IMG/VR virus record: IMGVR_UViG_2740892439_000005
Direction: 5' to 3' (one strand)
Length of the DNA: 5,784 bases
Source: a virus
Taxonomy: Duplodnaviria > Heunggongvirae > Uroviricota > Caudoviricetes
Every line of letters starts with the position of its first letter. The first letter of the stretch is position 1. The notes under the pieces were generated by a model that had not been told where the DNA came from, did not search any database, and saw only the letters and a list, made by a program, of their open reading frames with translations. The position numbers were made by a program, and so were the translations under genes. Below, one piece after another: positions 1 through 5,784 of the stretch.

Positions 1-376
1 AGGTGGTTTCCACCAGTGCCTGCACGCCGAAGGTAAAACGCAGTCGGTCAATGTTTGCCGACGTAATGGTGCGGGTGATCGGCGTGTCATATTTCACTTC
101 CGTACCCAGCACCGTCTCGGAGCCGGAGGATTCAAATCCCTCCGGCGGTGTCTGCTCCTGCTCACCGGCCCGGAACACCACCGTGACGCCGGATATATTG
201 GTATTCCCCTCACTGTCCAGCACCGGCGTACTGTTCAGCAGCACGCTTTTTAATCCATCCACCGGACCTTCAACCGGCCCTTCGCTGATGGCATCGATCA
301 CACTCAGCAGCTGCGTGGACTTCAGGTTGTCCTTCGCTTCGCGCGGGGTATGCCCCTTACTGCTGCCTTTACCCAT
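1..376 (-). CDS. J: Tail tip host-specificity / central tail fibre protein J, N-terminal 125 codons only (3' part of the gene lies beyond the left edge)
   Basis: Absent from the ORF track because no stop lies within the window. Manual minus-strand translation from ATG (plus 374-376) reads MGKGSSKGHTPREAKDNLKSTQLLSVIDAISEGPVEGPVDGLKSVLLNSTPVLDSEGNTNISGVTVVFRAGEQEQTPPEGFESSGSETVLGTEVKYDTPITRTITSANIDRLRFTFGVQALVETT with no stop down to position 2. This matches my recollection of the lambda gpJ N-terminus almost residue for residue. GGAG lies ~11 nt upstream of the ATG. Confidence 0.9.
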   Translation of the reverse strand, partial: MGKGSSKGHTPREAKDNLKSTQLLSVIDAISEGPVEGPVDGLKSVLLNSTPVLDSEGNTNISGVTVVFRAGEQEQTPPEGFESSGSETVLGTEVKYDTPITRTITSANIDRLRFTFGVQALVETT

Positions 377-393
377 TCGTCATGCTCCATTAA

Positions 394-418
394 CGATAAA
401 ACCGCCCGGAGGCGGTTT
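394..418 (-). terminator. Candidate stem-loop (8-bp stem AAACCGCC/GGCGGTTT, 4-nt loop) followed by T-rich tract in the I-J intergenic spacer; possible weak intrinsic terminator, attenuator or RNA processing/stability element
   Basis: Minus-strand RNA reads GAAACCGCC-UCCG-GGCGGUUU-UAUCGUU. The palindrome is perfect and sits in the only sizeable non-coding gap in the window (60 nt between I stop 437-439 and J start 374-376). The GC core is only 5 bp and the U-tract is short, so terminator function is uncertain. Confidence 0.25.
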
Positions 419-436
419 CACATAAAACATTTTGCA

Positions 437-1084
437 TCAGCGACCAATCACCACAACCTGACCACCATCCCCTTCGTCTGCCGTGCTGATCTCCTGAGAA
501 ACCACGCGTGACCCCACGCGCATTTCACCGTACAGAACCGGCAGAACATTGCCCTGGGCAACCATGTTATCCAGTGAGGAGAAATAGGTGTTCTGCTTAC
601 CGTTATCCGTTGTCTGTGTACGGGGAGTTCTGGCTTTCGGTGCCAGCATCTGCGCCACACCGCCAAGGATCATACTGGCCCCCGCAGCATACATGCCCGA
701 TAAAGCCGCAGCTCCCAGCCAGCCTGCAGGGTTCCACCACGCCACTGCAATCAGCGCCGCACCCAGCACCGCCTGAAACACACCGCCACTTTTTGCTCCC
801 GCAAGACGCGGCACGATGTGGATCACGGCACCATTTTTCAGCGGCTCATTAAGACGGGCTGATAATTCGTTTTCGCCTGCATCACGCCCGGCAATCCGTA
901 CCTGATACCAGCCGTCGCTCAGTTTCTGACGAAACGCCGGGATCTGCATGGCCAGCGCCCGGATGGCTTCGGACCCCGTTTTCACTCGAAGGTCGATGCG
1001 GCGGCCAAATCGTTGCAAATCCCCGTAAAGGCAGATGCGTGCCATGCCCGGTGACGCCAGAGGGAGTGTGTGCGTCGCTGCCAT
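437..1084 (-). CDS. I: Tail assembly protein I (lambda gpI homologue): N-terminal ubiquitin-like domain, diglycine at residues 100-101, hydrophobic C-terminal domain
   Basis: ORF-track 215-aa protein MAATHTLPLASPGMARICLYGDLQRFGRRIDLRVKTG...GQVVVIGR matches lambda gpI from memory at both N- and C-termini, with a divergent Gly/Ala-rich hydrophobic middle. ATG start at 1082-1084 with GAGG ~12 nt upstream; TGA stop at 437-439. Confidence 0.92.
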   Translation of the reverse strand: MAATHTLPLASPGMARICLYGDLQRFGRRIDLRVKTGSEAIRALAMQIPAFRQKLSDGWYQVRIAGRDAGENELSARLNEPLKNGAVIHIVPRLAGAKSGGVFQAVLGAALIAVAWWNPAGWLGAAALSGMYAAGASMILGGVAQMLAPKARTPRTQTTDNGKQNTYFSSLDNMVAQGNVLPVLYGEMRVGSRVVSQEISTADEGDGGQVVVIGR

Positions 1085-1725
1085 TTGTCGGTGTACCTCT
1101 CTCGTTTGCTCAGTTGTTCAGGAATATGGTGCAGCAGCTCGCCGTCACCACAGTAAATGGCGGCATGATTCGGCACCGATGAACCAAAGCAGCACAGCAG
1201 CACATCGCCCGGTTGTGCTGATGACAACGGCACCTGATACAGCCCTGTGGCCTCCAGATTATCCAGATAGAGATTCTGACCGTGACGCCACCAGTCATCC
1301 CCGCGATGAAAATCCGGCATCTCAATCCCCGCCAGATGATAAGCATCCCGGAACAGCGTGTAACAGTCCGTCACCCCGTGCTCAAAGCGCCGCCCGGTGA
1401 GATGCGGCACACAGCGGAACTTATGAATCGCCCCCCGGCAGACCAGCCACCACGGCAAATCACTCTGCACCTGCAGCCGCCGGTCAGCCTCACTCAGCCA
1501 GGGCAGACCACCGGGGTGGCTGTGGACCAGCGCCACAATCTCACCCTGCATTTCTGCCTGCAGCCAGTCCTCCGGAACCATCCGGAAATAATCCTCCGGC
1601 TCACCGGAAATATTCACGCCGGGAAAATATCTTTCCCCCTCCGGCGCTCTCACCACGAAGCCGCACGACTCCGCTGGCGCACATCGCCGGGCGTGCGCCA
1701 GAATCGCTGATTCTGTCTCTGTCAT
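982..1725 (-). CDS. K: Tail tip assembly protein K (lambda gpK homologue): N-terminal MPN/JAMM (JAB) domain plus C-terminal NlpC/P60-like Cys-His peptidase domain; long 247-aa form (canonical 199-aa lambda form would start at ATG 1579-1581)
   Basis: 247-aa translation MTETESAILAHARRCAPAESCGFVV...HSHPGGLPWLSEAD...GVTDCYTLFRDAYH... matches lambda gpK from memory. JAMM motif H68-x-H70-x7-S78-x2-D81 is present, with a candidate upstream Glu in the E-x-C-G context (AESCGFVV, E19). The frame is open from an ATG 5 nt after the L stop. An internal ATG (Met49) has a GGAGGA Shine-Dalgarno ~10 nt upstream, so the start is ambiguous. Confidence 0.88.
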   Translation of the reverse strand: MTETESAILAHARRCAPAESCGFVVRAPEGERYFPGVNISGEPEDYFRMVPEDWLQAEMQGEIVALVHSHPGGLPWLSEADRRLQVQSDLPWWLVCRGAIHKFRCVPHLTGRRFEHGVTDCYTLFRDAYHLAGIEMPDFHRGDDWWRHGQNLYLDNLEATGLYQVPLSSAQPGDVLLCCFGSSVPNHAAIYCGDGELLHHIPEQLSKRERYTDKWQRRTHSLWRHRAWHASAFTGICNDLAAASTFE

Positions 1726-1730
1726 GGGAT

Positions 1731-2429
1731 TTACTGCGAAAGTTTGTTAATGGAAAGGTAACCGCCAAAGTTGCCGACGTTATTGCGAAACTTACAGCCG
1801 CTCAGGCATTTGCTGCATTTATCCTTCGTGATATCGGACGTCGGCTGGTCATATTCATCCGCGACAGCCGGACCGTGATAACCGCACTCATCACCGCGAT
1901 AGGTCCAGGTGCAGGTGTTGGCCAGCATGATACGTCCCGGAAAAACAGCGCCATCCGTTTCCGTCGGCGTGGACAGTACAAAGGAGGCACTCACCGCGCT
2001 CAGTTCGCTGCACTGCTCGATGCGCCAGCGGCTGATCACCTCCTGCTCCGGATCGGCGTCACTGTTTCCGTTGACGAAGTTCACCGCATCCAGAAAACGG
2101 GCGTAAACCTTACGCCGGACCACCGTTCCGCCGACCAGACTCTGCAGATCTTCCGCCATCCCGGTGACCATACCGTACAGGTTAGAAACCGTCAGCGTGG
2201 GGCGCGTACTGGTGCCTTTGCCATTCAGTTCAAAACCACTCCCCTGAATGGGATACGGCTGATACTGTCGCCCCTGCCAGGTGACCGGCTCACCTTTTTC
2301 GTTCTGCTCATTACAGAAAAAATAACGTTCTCCACCGACCTCTGTCAGGTCGATTTCCCAGAGCACCACGCTGGCCGACTGCTCCGCACGGGTGCATTCA
2401 TTCAGTGTTTCCTGTTGTATGTCCTGCAT
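1731..2429 (-). CDS. L: Tail tip assembly protein L (lambda gpL homologue), 232 aa, with C-terminal cysteine cluster
   Basis: 232-aa translation MQDIQQETLNECTRAEQSASVVLWEIDLTEVGGERYFFCNEQNEKGEPVTWQGRQYQPYPIQGSGFELNGKG... is near-identical, from memory, to lambda gpL and has the same length. C-terminal cysteines occur in TCTWTYRGDECGY and KDKCSKCLSGCKF. ATG at 2427-2429 overlaps the M stop by 1 nt. Confidence 0.93.
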   Translation of the reverse strand: MQDIQQETLNECTRAEQSASVVLWEIDLTEVGGERYFFCNEQNEKGEPVTWQGRQYQPYPIQGSGFELNGKGTSTRPTLTVSNLYGMVTGMAEDLQSLVGGTVVRRKVYARFLDAVNFVNGNSDADPEQEVISRWRIEQCSELSAVSASFVLSTPTETDGAVFPGRIMLANTCTWTYRGDECGYHGPAVADEYDQPTSDITKDKCSKCLSGCKFRNNVGNFGGYLSINKLSQ

Positions 2430-2767
2430 CAGATCACCACTTCGTCAAACTGACACGAAAAATCGGTATAGGTGATATGTTCTGTCGCTGACCACGTTCG
2501 ACACACCACTCTGATTTTTCTGTTAATACCCGGCGGGCGCCAAAAAAAAGATTTATAGCCTTCATGCCGGGCTAAAAATTTTTCAAATGAATCACGTTCA
2601 TTCGCCTCAACTTTGAAATCACAGGTGAAAACGCGCAGAGAATGATTAAGTCCATTTGGACTTCGTTGCTCATAACCATCGCCAAATCTTACAGTTTTTA
2701 TCGATGGTTTATTTTCTGTTTTCATTCCATCCTCTGGTAACCAGTGAAATTCTTCCGTATTAGCCAC
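2429..2767 (-). CDS. M: Minor tail protein M (lambda gpM family), 112 aa, GTG start
   Basis: Translation contains VRFGDGYEQR...GLN...KSFFWRPP...FDEVVI, which aligns with lambda gpM (109 aa; RFGDGYSQR...KSFLWTPP...FEQVVN as I recall) at roughly 45-50 percent identity. Position between the tape measure gene and L. GTG start at 2765-2767 is preceded by GGGGGA; an alternative ATG lies at codon 15. Confidence 0.85.
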   Translation of the reverse strand: MANTEEFHWLPEDGMKTENKPSIKTVRFGDGYEQRSPNGLNHSLRVFTCDFKVEANERDSFEKFLARHEGYKSFFWRPPGINRKIRVVCRTWSATEHITYTDFSCQFDEVVI

Positions 2768-3033
2768 TTAACATTCCCCCATCACGTCGCATATTTAACA
2801 GATTGCCCTGCACCCGCTGATCAACCATCCCCATAAGTGCTTTTATTGCCTGAGGCCAATCTCTCCATTCTGGCCGTCATTTTGAATAGTGATTTGGTAT
2901 ACAGGGGCATAGGTAATATCTCCGCCTCCATTACCACTTTTACTATTAATAGCTCTGACACCAAGAGAACCATCGGAAGTTCGTGTTAATGGCATAATGG
3001 CTTCCGGACCAGCCTCACCAAAAACACCAGCCC
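2760..3033 (-). pseudogene. H: Frameshifted 3' end of the tape measure gene: the conserved C-terminal ~90 codons are split across two other reading frames (shifts near plus 3030-3034 and 2853-2857); true stop TAA at 2760-2762
   Basis: From the break after ...PQFFAFAKG, the -1 frame reads [58 protein letters not shown] and stops at 2843-2845. A further -1 frame reads PQAIKALMGMVDQRVQGNLLNMRRDGGMLSG to TAA 2760-2762, overlapping the GTG of M. The joined sequence resembles the lambda gpH C-terminus as I recall it (...NDGTNGQIGPAALKAVYDM...QMRDGGLFSGGGR). Each break is explained by loss of one base in a homopolymer (plus ccc 3031-3033; gg 2854-2855). Confidence 0.7.
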
Positions 3034-5784
3034 TTTTGCAAAAGCAAAAAATTGCGGGGAATCATAAATACCGTTCGAATACATGTTCAATGACGGAGAC
3101 TCATAAACACCGCCCTTTGCATTCGGAATAAATTTACTAATAGCACTCCCGATAGTTCCTAAAATCCCCCCAGAAGAACTGTTACTAATGCTGTCGAAAA
3201 TCCCAGTAATTGAAGCCTTTAATGCTATTCGACTAAGATCCGAAATCACGGAAGTAGCGAAAGAACGAAAATTTGCCTTGCCTGTCGTGACAAAATCACC
3301 CAGCGCATCGGTCATTCCATCAAACATCTGAGTCGTGGTTGATTTTATCTGCTCACTGATATCCTTAGTGTCATCCAGCCAGTTATTGAATCCCTGGGAG
3401 GCACCACTAACCCAGTCTCCTGCCTGAATATCGAGCTGCTCGTTTTTCTGTCTGACAATGTCTTTTTCTCGTTCCAGAGCATCATTCAGAGCCTGCATTT
3501 TCTCCTGAAAAACATGATTTGACATCCCACGGGATTTATCTGCATAGTCACGTTCAAGTTGCAGACGCTGATTGTTATATTCACGTTCAATCCGCAGTAA
3601 TTCCTGCTGGCGTTGCTGATTTTTATCGCCAACCCCATAACCAGCAATCTGAATATCATACCCCTGTTGACGATTATCAATCGAAGCCTGCAATGAATCA
3701 CGCCATGCAGCTATTTCGGCGGATTCCTTGATTAGCCTGTTATTTTTTTCAATCGCAACATTTTTCTCCATCAACGCGGTTATTTCTTCCCGGTGTAAGA
3801 GAAGCGATTTCTGATCCTGGGTTAATTTCGATGACGGTCGTGACTCCAGGTTGGCAATCTGCTGACGCCACTTAACCAGTTCCTGTTCAGTGGAACTTAA
3901 TTTAACGGTTAATTCAGTTTGTGAACTTAGTAACGCATTCTGTTGATTCAGATGATCAATCATTCGTTGGGCAGCATCATCCGAATAACCTTTCGCCTTT
4001 GGTTGCTTTGGATCTTTATAACGCTCATTTATTTGAGCGATAAGATTATTATATTCTTCCTTTGAATACTGACTCTTTAGCTTTTCCAGTTTTGCAAGTT
4101 CACTAGCTCTCTGCTGCTCCCGGGTCTGATATTGTTTTGAAAAGGCATCTGCTCTCTGTCTGAGTTCAATTCCTTCCTGTTGTCGCTTGTTGTAATCGTT
4201 TATTGATGAATTTAGTACGTCCTGAGCAATTTTTTCTGCTTGAAGTGCGCCCAATTGCTGCTTTAATCGTGCCAGCCTTTTATTTTGAGCTCCGCCATCT
4301 CCAATGCCACCTAACCCGAAAACTCCGGGTCGGGTATTTTTTTCTATTTCATCAATTTGACGGAGAACATCTGAGATTTTTTGATCAAGGGAGGCCTCAC
4401 GGCCAATATCCAGCATGGAATCCCATGCCCATTTTGCGGAGTCTGCGACAGCTTTCCATGCAGTCTCAAGATAACCAAGATTTTCTTTAATCTGGTTGGT
4501 GCGCTGGATCATTGAGGATGAGTATGCTTCTGTCGCAATGCGGGCGGCCTCCTGCTGGTTCCCTTCATCCTGTAGCGCCTTAATCTGGTTATAAGTCGCA
4601 ATTGTCAGAAAATGGTACTGATCATTAAGTTTTGATATGGCACTGACAGGATCCTTTGCAATTTCACTGAAGTCATTAACCAGTTGTTCGGTTGATATTC
4701 CTGTTACTTCGCTCGTTTTTACTATCGCTGTCGTCACTTGCTCCAGCGAACTGCTCGCTACCTTTCCCGAACGCACAAGCTGGTTTAATACTGCCGCCGC
4801 AGCGCCAGTTGTCGAATCAGCCGCATTCCCGGCACGTTGAGCTATATCGGCCAATTGCCCGCTGGTTGTCCCCAACTGATTTCCGGTAAGAATAAGAGAT
4901 TTATTAAATTCGTCCTGCTCCTGAGAGCCTTTATAGTAAGCCAGCCCTAAGACGCCAACGGCTGCTGCGGCCAGGGTAAAAGGATTAATTAATCCCAGCA
5001 CATAAGAACCAACACCTTTGATCGCCGGGCCAATCCCACCGAACATATCTTTTAGCTGGCCGCCCTGCTGCATTAACACCATAAAAGGCGACTGACCAGT
5101 GGACAACCCAACAACAATATCCGTCATTTGTGCAGGCAACATGCGCATAGCAAAAGCCGTTTGTTTTGCCGACATTCCGGTTTTGCTTAATTGAGATTGA
5201 GTAACCTCAAGCTCACTCCGCATAGCACGAAGTTTTCCAGAAAGTTCCTCATACATTTCAGGAGAGAGCATCCCCTTAGCTTTTGCTTCATTGAGCTGTT
5301 TCTGTTGTTCTACCAGACGATTAAAAGCAGTTCCGACAGGGTCAAGTTGAGCAATCAGACGTTGCAAAGCAGCAACCTGTTCATCATGCGCTTTTGCTGC
5401 TTCTCGCTCTGCCTGAGCCTCTCCGGTAAGCTCTCGCCGTGTTTCCTGTATTTTTCGGCTATAATTCTCAAACTGAGAACCATTTATTTTCCCGGATGCA
5501 AACGCAGCATTAAGTTCATCCTGCTGTTGTTCAAGATTTCTTAGCGCCGCAGCCAGAGGGTCGATCTTGTCCAGCATTCTTTGAAAGGCCTGAGCCTGCG
5601 CTTCCTGCTGGGCGGCAGCAAGTTTTCCGGCCTTCTCGGCTTCTCTCTGCGCTTGCGCAACCCCGCTCAATTCCTCTGTGGTTTCATTAAGTTTACGGAC
5701 AAGAAATTCATATTCTTCTTTATCAATAAGCCCTTTATCGAAAAATTTCTTTAATTCAGAATAGCGTCGACCGACAGTATCAAT
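2986..5784 (-). CDS. H: Tail length tape measure protein (lambda gpH homologue), 5' partial; the reading frame is open to the right window edge (the track's 894-aa ORF begins at an internal TTG), and the 3' end is prematurely terminated by a frameshift
   Basis: Minus-strand frame is open from 5784 to the stop at 2986-2988 (932 codons in the window). Contains lambda-H-like blocks: [39 protein letters not shown] (lambda: [11 protein letters not shown]...GGQSPW..LLQQGGQVKDSFGG) and [28 protein letters not shown]. Also long Gln/Glu/Lys-rich coiled-coil-like stretches and hydrophobic segments typical of tape measure proteins. The last 16 residues ([14 protein letters not shown]) look like out-of-frame translation. 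Confidence 0.9.

Follow-up and report, generated by a model that had tools for sequence, protein, structure and literature searches.

A lambda-type tail-tip gene pair in an Escherichia coli prophage: a ubiquitin-like tail protein, I, and its predicted JAB protease, K

The tail tip assembly proteins gpI and gpK of phage lambda (TAPI/TAPK) are the closest described counterparts of the gene pair considered here. Their ubiquitin-like/JAB logic was predicted by comparative genomics (Iyer, Burroughs and Aravind 2006, PMC1779556), literature to which a first-pass annotation of this DNA had correctly referred. In TAPI, a strongly conserved Gly ends the beta-grasp domain and is followed by a Gly-rich low-complexity linker and then by TAPI-C (Iyer et al. 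2006, PMC1779556). Cryo-EM of virions shows the C-terminal part of gpI alone and no gpK: residues 134/135-223 of lambda gpI form a trimeric plug bound to the C-terminus of gpH (PMC10721106, PMC12617516; gpI in PDB 8IYK, 8IYL, 8K35, 8XCG, 9E7M). Virion mass spectrometry yielded a single gpI peptide at 9.87% coverage (PMC10721106 supplement, peptide sequence not given) and, with one peptide only, cannot tell which part of gpI is present. What becomes of the rest of the protein? At a 2025 conference talk, gpK-dependent removal of the gpI ubiquitin-like domain was reported as experimentally shown (meeting report PMC12908700); the biochemistry is thus less poorly characterised than the annotation supposed. 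That report, which gives neither data nor the cut site, is the sole statement on the cleavage that our literature search found; no full paper on it turned up.

Other known systems resemble the pair in part. The F-type pyocin of Pseudomonas aeruginosa (PDB 25vf), a tailocin rather than a phage, has a tip plug, PA0640, and a gpK homologue, PA0639; in its particles, of PA0640 only the C-terminal residues 127-200 are seen, and PA0639 is absent. PA0640 matches I (E=1.7e-21, residues 11-201), and its tail, VIGSKQSGLF, is devoid of GG. In the tail tip of phage T5, the position of the gpI C-terminal domain is filled by the pb3 plug domain (PMC10721106), which is inserted into the hub protein and comes with neither a ubiquitin-like domain nor a K-type protease. 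The Bil (bacterial ISG15-like) system likewise combines a ubiquitin-like protein with a JAB-type deubiquitinase, and its target is the central tail fibre, which I and K help assemble. Bil, however, is a host defence that relies on E1 and E2 conjugation, whereas the K-I pair lacks machinery for conjugation and carries its ubiquitin-like domain within the translated I chain.

The window, that is, the whole stretch of 5,784 nucleotides analysed here (IMG/VR record IMGVR_UViG_2740892439_000005), contains H, M, L, K, I and J only and is a lambdoid E. coli prophage tail operon with the gene order H-M-L-K-I-J (Table 1). The K and I reading frames are present on the minus strand where the first-pass annotation had placed them, and both are whole; the arrangement is intact, as that annotation stated, and L-K-I-J follow one another in the same order as in lambda and ten other phages. 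It had also put K immediately upstream of I: K does adjoin I, but the two frames overlap by 103 nt. The genes, their order and the length of the overlap are the same in lambda, while in distant phages the overlap shrinks to 4-38 nt, with a gap in one. The ten phages belong to other genera, and their I proteins are only 28-38% identical to this one (tblastn). Phage records with a tblastn match number 1,733 for I and 1,765 for K, with almost equal genus counts; K and I co-occur nearly one to one in about 1,750 records. When viral contigs were searched with the distant I homologue P0258, no locus was confirmed. The 5' end of J, read by hand, gives MGKGSSKGHTPREAKDNLKST..., and J also comes next in the closest phage and E. 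coli records. Programmed K/I frameshifting, which the 103-nt overlap had suggested, was considered and rejected: K-I fusions in databases are single-member clusters with differing junctions, and the overlap of merely 4-38 nt in distant phages also speaks against it. The H gene carries two frameshifts, apparent one-base deletions; the prophage may therefore be defective, and K and I perhaps out of use.

Table 1. Genes, domains and motifs of the K-I region, with positions in the window
Feature	Position	Strand	Detail or basis
Gene J, 5' end (central tail fibre / host specificity)	1..376	-	ATG 376; exits window
Gene I (tail tip assembly / plug protein precursor)	437..1084	-	215 aa; ATG 1084, stop 437-439
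I residues 148-215, C-terminal plug domain	440..643	-	match to virion gpI chains
I residues 102-147, two uncharged Gly/Ala-rich hydrophobic helices (H1, H2 of lambda gpI)	644..781	-	composition, AF2
I residues 93-101, tail RLAGAKSGG between beta-grasp domain and first hydrophobic helix	782..808	-	expected processing region; both candidate cut sites
I Gly100-Gly101 diglycine	782..787	-	codons GGC (785-787) and GGT (782-784)
I Gly96-Ala97, family-wide P-x3-G-[ASG] motif	794..799	-	homologue alignment; MoaD alignment
I residues 14-92, MoaD/ThiS/ubiquitin-like beta-grasp domain	809..1045	-	AF2, Foldseek
Overlap of K 3' end and I 5' end, 103 nt, out of frame	982..1084	-	ORF coordinates
Gene K (tail tip assembly protease, predicted)	982..1725	-	247 aa; ATG 1725, stop 982-984
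K residues 111-224, NlpC/P60 papain-like cysteine peptidase domain	1054..1395	-	Pfam PF00877
K NlpC/P60 Cys121; His187; His200	1363-1365; 1165-1167; 1126-1128	-	each in 63/63 homologues
K residues 1-105, JAB/JAMM (MPN+) metalloprotease domain	1411..1725	-	Pfam, AF2, Foldseek
K His68-Ser-His70-x7-Ser78-x2-Asp81, JAMM zinc-binding motif HSHPGGLPWLSEAD	1483..1524	-	homologue alignment
K Glu19, upstream catalytic Glu of JAMM motif	1669..1671	-	invariant in 11 diverse and 63/63 homologues
Gene L (tail tip hub protein)	1731..2429	-	PF05100, E=2.1e-100
Gene M (distal tail protein)	2429..2767	-	PF05939, E=1.2e-31

Protein I resembles lambda gpI from end to end, at about 79% identity (tblastn; phmmer E=3.7e-109 to gpI of PDB 8iyk), and follows the same plan of a beta-grasp domain, a tail, two hydrophobic helices and a plug; at 215 aa against 223 in lambda, its hydrophobic linker is 8 residues shorter. 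Residues 14-97 match positions 2-83 of the 83-position Lambda_tail_I profile (PF06805, E=8.8e-24, 84.2 bits, cut-off 23.8); this match and the two for K described below lie far beyond chance, and all exceed the Pfam gathering scores. The proposal that I begins with a compact beta-grasp domain is borne out by the AF2 model, in which pLDDT is 93-97 over residues 14-92 and the elements run E14-19 H21-26 E29-33 H37-47 H49-57 E60-64 E67-69 H74-78 E87-92. In Foldseek the top PDB matches of this model are MoaD chains (2q5w_D, 1fm0_D, 1jwb_D; TM 0.69-0.73, rmsd 2.2-2.4 A), with ubiquitin, SUMO and NEDD8 ranking next. Confidence falls to a pLDDT of about 67 in the tail, beyond which helices are modelled at 100-117 and 125-147. 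The annotation described the C-terminal half as hydrophobic and Gly/Ala-rich: this is true of residues 102-147 (46 residues, none charged, 43% G+A, Kyte-Doolittle hydropathy up to 2.15), whose lambda counterparts H1 and H2 have been described as predicted transmembrane helices (PMC11101478), but not of residues 148-215, which are polar and beta-rich. Against the gpI chains of PDB 9e7m, 90 residues each, residues 131-214 score E=4e-46. Thus, I has the family profile, the beta-grasp fold, the conserved Gly (Gly96), the Gly-rich linker with TAPI-C and the place between K and J expected of Lambda_tail_I/TAPI. Although its N-terminal domain has a MoaD fold, I is not classed as a sulfur carrier or conjugated modifier with the ThiS/MoaD proteins because Gly96-Ala97 is internal to a 215-aa chain and an ORF and Pfam survey found no gene for an E1-like adenylating enzyme in the window.

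Protein K, a member of phrog_30 (E=3.6e-160), is, as the first-pass annotation had stated, a fusion of JAB and NlpC/P60 domains; its catalytic motifs are complete, and the strings quoted in that annotation, HSHPGGLPWLSEAD, GVTDCYTLFRDAYH and HAAIYCGDG in K and PRLAGAKSGG in I, are all found in the translations. Residues 4-98 match Prok-JAB (PF14464, E=3.1e-13), and the full JAMM/MPN+ motif, E ... H-x-H-x7-S-x2-D, is present: Glu19, His68, His70 and Asp81 are kept in 63/63 homologues and Ser78 in 62 of them. The fold of the JAB domain was judged on the AF2 model of P0383, a natural K-I fusion with 93% identity to K across 90% of its length; pLDDT is 86-98 over K residues 1-105, and the best Foldseek matches, at a probability of 1.00, are Pyrococcus furiosus JAMM1 (5lda, 5ld9), Rpn11, CSN5 and AMSH. 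The JAMM1 matches include the chain crystallised with SAMP2. The second domain covers the whole NLPC_P60 profile (PF00877, 1-105 of 105; E=1.6e-12, 47.7 bits, cut-off 23). Both Pfam domains occur together in 120/120 best profile matches for K, and the lambda K reading frame has the same two-domain plan and the same motifs. NlpC/P60 proteins are C40 peptidases, a family with peptidoglycan (gamma-D-Glu-mDAP) hydrolase activity, but a part for K in cell-wall entry is improbable, given that virions lack it (PMC10721106, PMC12617516).

Comparable systems exist in archaea and bacteria, where JAMM proteases have ThiS/MoaD-type proteins as substrates: P. furiosus JAMM1-SAMP2, QbsD-QbsE and Mec+-CysO. 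In structure, the K JAB domain comes closest to JAMM1 and the I domain to MoaD. In JAMM1-SAMP2-type systems, as proposed for K and I, a JAMM enzyme acts on the C-terminal Gly tail of a MoaD-like beta-grasp protein. There, however, a free C-terminal GG serves sulfur transfer or conjugation and an E1-like enzyme takes part, whereas K-I has no E1 nearby and a Gly-Ala pair; also unlike in those systems, the useful product of K-I appears to be the C-terminal fragment and not the ubiquitin-like domain.

K and I are ordinary, intact copies of lambda tail-tip assembly genes, a module already known, and they very probably act as the standard lambda-type pair, in which the I precursor is uncapped by the K JAB protease during tip assembly. 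I would be made as a four-part precursor consisting of the beta-grasp domain (14-92), the Gly-containing tail (93-101), the hydrophobic helices (102-147) and the plug (148-215), and before docking the ubiquitin-like domain may prevent the hydrophobic helices from becoming insoluble. K, a predicted non-structural two-domain peptidase, would recognise the beta-grasp domain through its predicted JAMM/JAB zinc-protease domain, much as a deubiquitinase recognises ubiquitin, and would cut the tail once I has docked on the growing tip complex, releasing the ubiquitin-like domain. Such a cut would make this assembly step irreversible and ordered; K would then depart, and the plug domains would come to lie within the J/L cone as a trimer that grips the C-terminal end of the tape measure H. 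The present analysis shows the folds of the domains, their full and conserved catalytic motifs, the synteny of K, I and J and the pairing of K with I across phages; what is seen in virions (the C-terminal part of gpI, no gpK) and the cleavage described in the meeting report are taken from the literature. The reading given in the first-pass annotation repeats that of Iyer, Burroughs and Aravind (2006).

If K uncaps I, where does it cut? The first-pass annotation favoured Gly100-Gly101 as a conserved diglycine at the domain boundary, with the cut after Gly101. Judged from the alignment of 84 diverse I homologues, Gly100-Gly101 is not the conserved glycine pair of the family: GG occupies this register in 28/84, an outcome that the annotation itself had named as refuting its reading. 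Any GG downstream is found in 45/84, and one within the downstream linker in 39/80. By contrast, Pro92-x3-Gly96-[Ala/Ser/Gly]97 is present in about 95% of the homologues, with Gly at P+4 (Gly96) in 82/84 and Ala, Ser or Gly at P+5 in 81/84. In a profile of the I N-terminal domain, Gly96 aligns with the penultimate residue of MoaD 3rpf_C, so that the C-terminal GG of MoaD corresponds to Gly96-Ala97 (a weak sequence match, E=0.4-0.55). The cut would probably fall within Gly96-Gly101, most likely at Gly96-Ala97, the pair equivalent to the terminal GG in MoaD and ThiS. A cut exactly after Gly101, with Gly100-Gly101 acting as a ubiquitin-style diglycine, is unlikely, though it has points in its favour: KSGG places a basic residue just ahead of GG, reminiscent of the RLRGG tail of ubiquitin; 70/84 homologues have K or R within P+6 to P+8; at P+9, Gly is more frequent than any other residue (54/84); and four homologues without G-[ASG] at 96-97 (T1-like Jk06, Sushi, phiKp_14 and P0164) retain a downstream GG. 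Yet the downstream linker is devoid of any GG in 41/80 homologues, and 8/84 have no Gly from P+7 to P+12; the MoaD alignment also points to 96-97 instead. Furthermore, in assembled lambda tails the resolved part of gpI is reported to start at residue 101 (PMC11101478); with residue 101 in the resolved chain, a cut after Gly101 is disfavoured. In the AF2 model of the P0383 fusion, the domains are modelled well but the I tail is not docked into the JAB domain (pTM 0.42; pLDDT <50 at I residues 98-101), so the model carries no information on where the cut lies.

Which domain of K does the cutting? Some phages flank TAPI with a TAPK that has the NlpC/P60 domain only (PMC1779556), and Cys121, His187 and His200 are as invariant as the JAMM residues; the NlpC/P60 domain might thus remove the ubiquitin-like domain in place of JAB, or both domains might cut at different sites. 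We give this possibility a small chance: the meeting report on cleavage describes gpK by its deubiquitinating domain (PMC12908700), prokaryotic ThiS/MoaD-like proteins are generally linked with JAB domains (PMC1779556), and the JAB domain is retained in all 120 best K homologues.

A further, slim possibility is that K is a two-substrate protease, in which JAB would uncap I at Gly96-Ala97 and NlpC/P60 would cut gpH into gpH* and gpHC. The 2025 Ur-lambda paper states that how gpH cleavage is catalysed is not known (PMC12617516). Against this assignment, gpH cleavage is reported to follow tail assembly, and K is absent from tails. The proposed gpH cut would lie in the Gly-rich C-terminal region of gpH, which lies right on top of the I plug.

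The JAB domain of K could also be viewed as mainly a counter-defence that strips Bil-attached ubiquitin-like proteins from J, with I not being a substrate at all. Hor et al. showed that Bil conjugates its ubiquitin-like protein to the central tail fibre, and K is encoded beside I and J. As the main function of K, this is highly improbable: the meeting report gives gpI as the substrate (PMC12908700). In addition, K and I pair nearly one to one in the roughly 1,750 phage records, and I has a ubiquitin-like domain of its own. Lambda genetics has established that tails cannot assemble without K in standard laboratory E. coli K-12, a host that is not known to have a Bil system. Bil-directed deconjugation could still be a secondary activity of K.

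That I stays uncleaved, its ubiquitin-like domain attached and too flexible for cryo-EM, would agree with papers that call the N-terminal domain merely 'unresolved' (PMC10721106, PMC12617516, PMC11101478) and with a single virion peptide that does not tell the parts of gpI apart, but it is scarcely probable given the cleavage reported at the meeting (PMC12908700), the conserved pairing with a JAB protease and the lumen of the tip cone, which probably leaves little space for three more folded domains.

As a discovery the locus carries little weight: the K-I module is a textbook lambda feature, and its ubiquitin-like/JAB logic dates from 2006, with experimental confirmation reported. In view of the alignments, a search for the processing site should take in conserved Gly96-Ala97 in addition to the diglycine. 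Two observations concern database entries. Many genome annotations begin I at an internal GTG, by which one third of the ubiquitin-like domain is lost. In the lambda reference record, K is annotated at 199 aa, as compared with 247 aa here, owing to a one-base difference, and is without the first 48 residues of the JAB domain, catalytic Glu19 among them. K and I constructs designed from such reference entries would be affected by both truncations.

All long open reading frames of the window lie on the minus strand and belong to a lambdoid late operon, of which they form the tail-tip section (Table). This DNA is very common: many E. coli lambdoid phages are 92-96% identical to its K-I stretch, E. 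coli chromosomal prophages match the whole window at 98% identity, and a related stretch is present in 4,761 of 5,426 complete E. coli genomes. The first-pass annotation, which set K immediately upstream of I, was right that the genes adjoin but missed their overlap of 103 nt in different frames, which lambda shares. By tblastn, I is found at 28-38% identity in ten phages of Burkholderia, Pseudomonas, Klebsiella, Rhizobium, Salmonella, Shigella, and E. coli, all of which keep the order L-type protein, K, I, J. Among 50,697 phage records searched in the same way, I occurs in 1,733 and K in 1,765; since these totals and the genus counts for I and K (Escherichia, 610 vs. 612; Klebsiella, 450 vs. 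454; Ralstonia, 60 vs. 60) are nearly equal, the pairing is close to obligatory. In 1,723 K records at least 80% of K is matched, so that both peptidase domains are present.

Features of the tail-tip region, with the evidence for each
Feature	Position	Strand	Basis
H, tape measure	2986-5670 and beyond	minus	ORF
M	2429-2767	minus	ORF; Pfam Phage_min_tail, far above gathering score
L	1731-2429	minus	ORF; Pfam Phage_tail_L, far above gathering score
K, 247 aa	982-1725	minus	ORF; Pfam Prok-JAB plus NLPC_P60, far above gathering scores
I, 215 aa	437-1084	minus	ORF; Pfam Lambda_tail_I, far above gathering score
J, start only	ATG at 376	minus	sequence

K had been read as a JAMM metalloprotease joined to an NlpC/P60-type Cys/His region, an identity upheld by Pfam and by the catalytic residues (conserved in 62-63 of 63 homologues); the strings cited for it (HSHPGGLPWLSEAD, GVTDCYTLFRDAYH, and HAAIYCGDG) are likewise correct. 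Residues invariant between window K and the K proteins of ten phages from other genera (28-42% identity) are (i) on the JAMM side, P17, E19, N38, H68, S69, H70, S78, and D81, with the motif E...HxHx7Sx2D complete; and (ii) on the NlpC/P60 side, R112, G117, D120, C121, G133, W146, G161, H187, H200, and R224, among which lies the Cys-His-His set. E19, H68, H70, D81, C121, H187, and H200 are present in 63/63 homologues and S78 in 62/63. Both PF14464 and PF00877 are found in all 120 best profile hits for K in a collection of 5.8 billion proteins, most of them 236-260 aa long. K was modeled through the natural K-I fusion P0383, a database protein 93% identical to K over 90% of its length; pLDDT is 86-98 in the JAB domain and 80-91 in the NlpC/P60 domain, with no confident docking of the I tail onto the JAB domain in this model (pTM 0.42; tail pLDDT <50). 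Its best PDB matches are Rpn11, CSN5, AMSH, and Pyrococcus JAMM1, including a JAMM1 chain from the complex with the ubiquitin-like SAMP2.

The putative substrate, I, matches lambda gpI at full length (E=3.7e-109), and its C-terminal 85 residues match the gpI chains of lambda virion structures (E=4e-46); sequence searches also return an F-pyocin tip-plug protein (25vf) and another putative tail assembly protein (9l9p). AlphaFold2, run with 67 sequences, predicts the expected N-terminal domain at residues 14-92 (pLDDT 93-97), with the strand/helix order of a beta-grasp fold; confidence drops in the tail (93-99), helices follow at 100-117 and 125-147, and the C-terminus is poorly predicted. The top three Foldseek matches in the PDB are the MoaD chains 2q5w_D, 1fm0_D, and 1jwb_D (TM 0.69-0.73 on target, rmsd 2.2-2.4 Å, about 83 columns), followed by ubiquitin, SUMO, NEDD8, and other ubiquitin-like domains. 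The C-terminal half, said to be hydrophobic and Gly/Ala-rich, is so only at residues 102-147 (46 residues, none charged, 43% G+A); residues 148-215 are polar.

The K-I system is not new. In the 2006 analysis by Iyer, Burroughs, and Aravind, TAPI consists of a ubiquitin-like domain of the ThiS/MoaD type, which has a conserved glycine at its C-terminal end, a Gly-rich linker, and a C-terminal domain, and TAPK combines JAB with NlpC/P60; the JAB domain was predicted to free the ubiquitin-like domain by a cut at the C-terminal-most glycine of the latter (PMC1779556). Lambda cryo-EM structures show gpI residues 135-223 (or 134-222) inside the tip as a trimeric plug to which the C-terminal coiled coil of gpH is bound; the gpI N-terminal domain is never seen, and gpK is resolved in none of the maps and undetected by mass spectrometry (PMC10721106; PMC12617516; PMC11101478). 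The F-pyocin homolog of I behaves in the same way. An October 2025 meeting report covers a talk by A. Davidson and presents gpK-dependent removal of the gpI ubiquitin-like domain as shown (PMC12908700); our literature search found no full paper on this cleavage.

Where, then, would K cut I? The first-pass annotation proposed Gly100-Gly101, at the end of PRLAGAKSGG; this string and the codon positions (Gly100 at 785-787, Gly101 at 782-784) are correct, and its overall interpretation survives in part: the module and the observation stand, but the diglycine does not hold up as proposed. In an alignment of window I with 63 full-length representatives of 50%-identity clusters (30-58% identical to I; n=64), Pro92 and Gly108 are invariant, Gly96 is present in 63, all 64 carry Ala, Ser, or Gly at position 97, and Gly101 is found in 53 but Gly100 in only 23. 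A second, alignment-free count used 84 homologs anchored on the invariant proline (P+n being n residues after it, so that P+4 is Gly96). Here, P+4 is Gly in 82 and P+5 a small residue (Ala, Ser, or Gly) in 81, while GG sits exactly at P+8/P+9 (Gly100-Gly101) in only 28 and anywhere from P+6 to P+13 in 45; eight homologs have no glycine from P+7 to P+12. Of 80 with both anchors placed, 41 have only G-[ASG], 35 both motifs, four, T1-like phages among them, only the downstream GG, and none lacks both. A profile of the N-terminal domain matches MoaD chains weakly (3rpf_C, E=0.4; 1v8c_A, E=0.55); in the 3rpf_C match Gly96 is opposite the penultimate MoaD residue, which places Gly96-Ala97 at the C-terminal Gly-Gly of MoaD. 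The E. coli MoaD tail FFPPVTGG likewise aligns without gaps on IVPRLAGA of I.

Our reading of these sequences is that the cut would fall within residues 96-101, with Gly96-Ala97 as the better-conserved candidate site. A JAB cut exactly after Gly101 is doubtful: a basic residue usually stands ahead of the downstream glycines (70/84 homologs have K or R between P+6 and P+8), recalling the RLRGG tail of ubiquitin, but only 28 of these 84 have GG at that register, and Ge and Wang report that in the closed lambda tail the resolved part of gpI starts at residue 101 (PMC11101478), which, if accurate, makes Gly101 part of the mature chain.

In the proposed pathway, I would be synthesized with a MoaD-like cap, which probably holds its two hydrophobic helices soluble and marks the precursor, and would dock on the J trimer. 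The JAB domain of K would bind the cap as a deubiquitinase binds ubiquitin and cut the tail; cap and K would then depart, leaving the C-terminal fragment as the plug, which, according to the literature, later opens on infection and may insert into the outer membrane. Cleavage of I by the NlpC/P60 domain of K instead is improbable; the conservation of this domain equals that of the JAB domain. Counter-defense against Bil ubiquitin-like conjugation to the tail fiber, put forward as speculation by Hor et al., is most unlikely to be the main role of K, and it is just as hard to credit that I stays uncleaved with a flexible N-terminal domain, given the removal reported for gpI.

Several records annotate I from the GTG of Val34, just inside the K end with a 4-nt overlap (window 982-1084; comparison loci L002 4538-5086, L013 636-1184, and L014 1955-2527), yielding products of 182-190 aa whose beta-grasp domain is missing strands 1-2 and helix 1. 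The Pfam profile, the AlphaFold2 model, and distant homologs beginning at the Met14 equivalent all put the true start at Met1 or Met14 instead, which makes the K-I overlap 64-103 nt in lambda-type phages vs. 4-38 nt in other genera. Scattered K-I fusions in public databases (P0383, P0316, P0051, P0007, P0006, P0003, and P0120) form clusters of one or two members each (P0316, two), with junctions that differ within the overlap, and the K gene of E. coli ET745 (L013 1181-1923) is flagged "frameshifted." A programmed fusion was rejected; the prophages concerned seem to have acquired frameshift mutations independently or to contain sequencing errors.

The lambda reference (J02459/NC_001416) is one base short near 14,270 (about 4265-4275 of L001, our lambda locus, equal to lambda 14265-14275; window about 1590-1600); the base is present in the window and in at least 20 lambda or lambda-related records. 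Its absence puts the first ~46 K codons, with catalytic Glu19, in another frame, and the reference K, a 199-aa protein from an internal ATG, has lost 48 residues from the N-terminus of its JAB domain, Glu19 among them. K of lambda record PV340536 is 744 nt (247 aa), as in the window. The loss looks like an old sequencing error carried into RefSeq and protein databases.

The 3' end of H (window 2763-3060, minus strand) has lost two single bases, each from a short homopolymer run (GGGG to GGG near 3025-3031 and CCC to CC near 2852-2860), so that its last ~90 codons occupy three frames; when the intact H of phage vB_EcoS-640R1 is the tblastn query, the match shifts from frame -1 through -3 to -2. 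Either the homopolymers were misread in sequencing or the prophage is defective. The affected region is the part that binds the I plug in lambda; in the best-matching E. coli prophage, H is intact and K is frameshifted.

Between the I stop at 437 and the J start lies a GC-rich hairpin (window 399-422, minus strand), AAACCGCC-UCCG-GGCGGUUU, followed by the U-run UUUUAUCGUU. The hairpin is stable, the 76-nt stretch folding at -27.4 kcal/mol (z = -3.1 vs. shuffles); it is missing from a simple terminator scan of the window, and in phage Sushi a terminator is annotated at this position between I and J. The hairpin may set the I:J ratio as an attenuator or by stabilizing the mRNA. The cysteine cluster CTWTYRGDECGY...CSKCLSGCKF at the gpL C-terminus (window 1731-1860, minus strand) is intact; in lambda gpL, this cluster binds a 4Fe-4S center.
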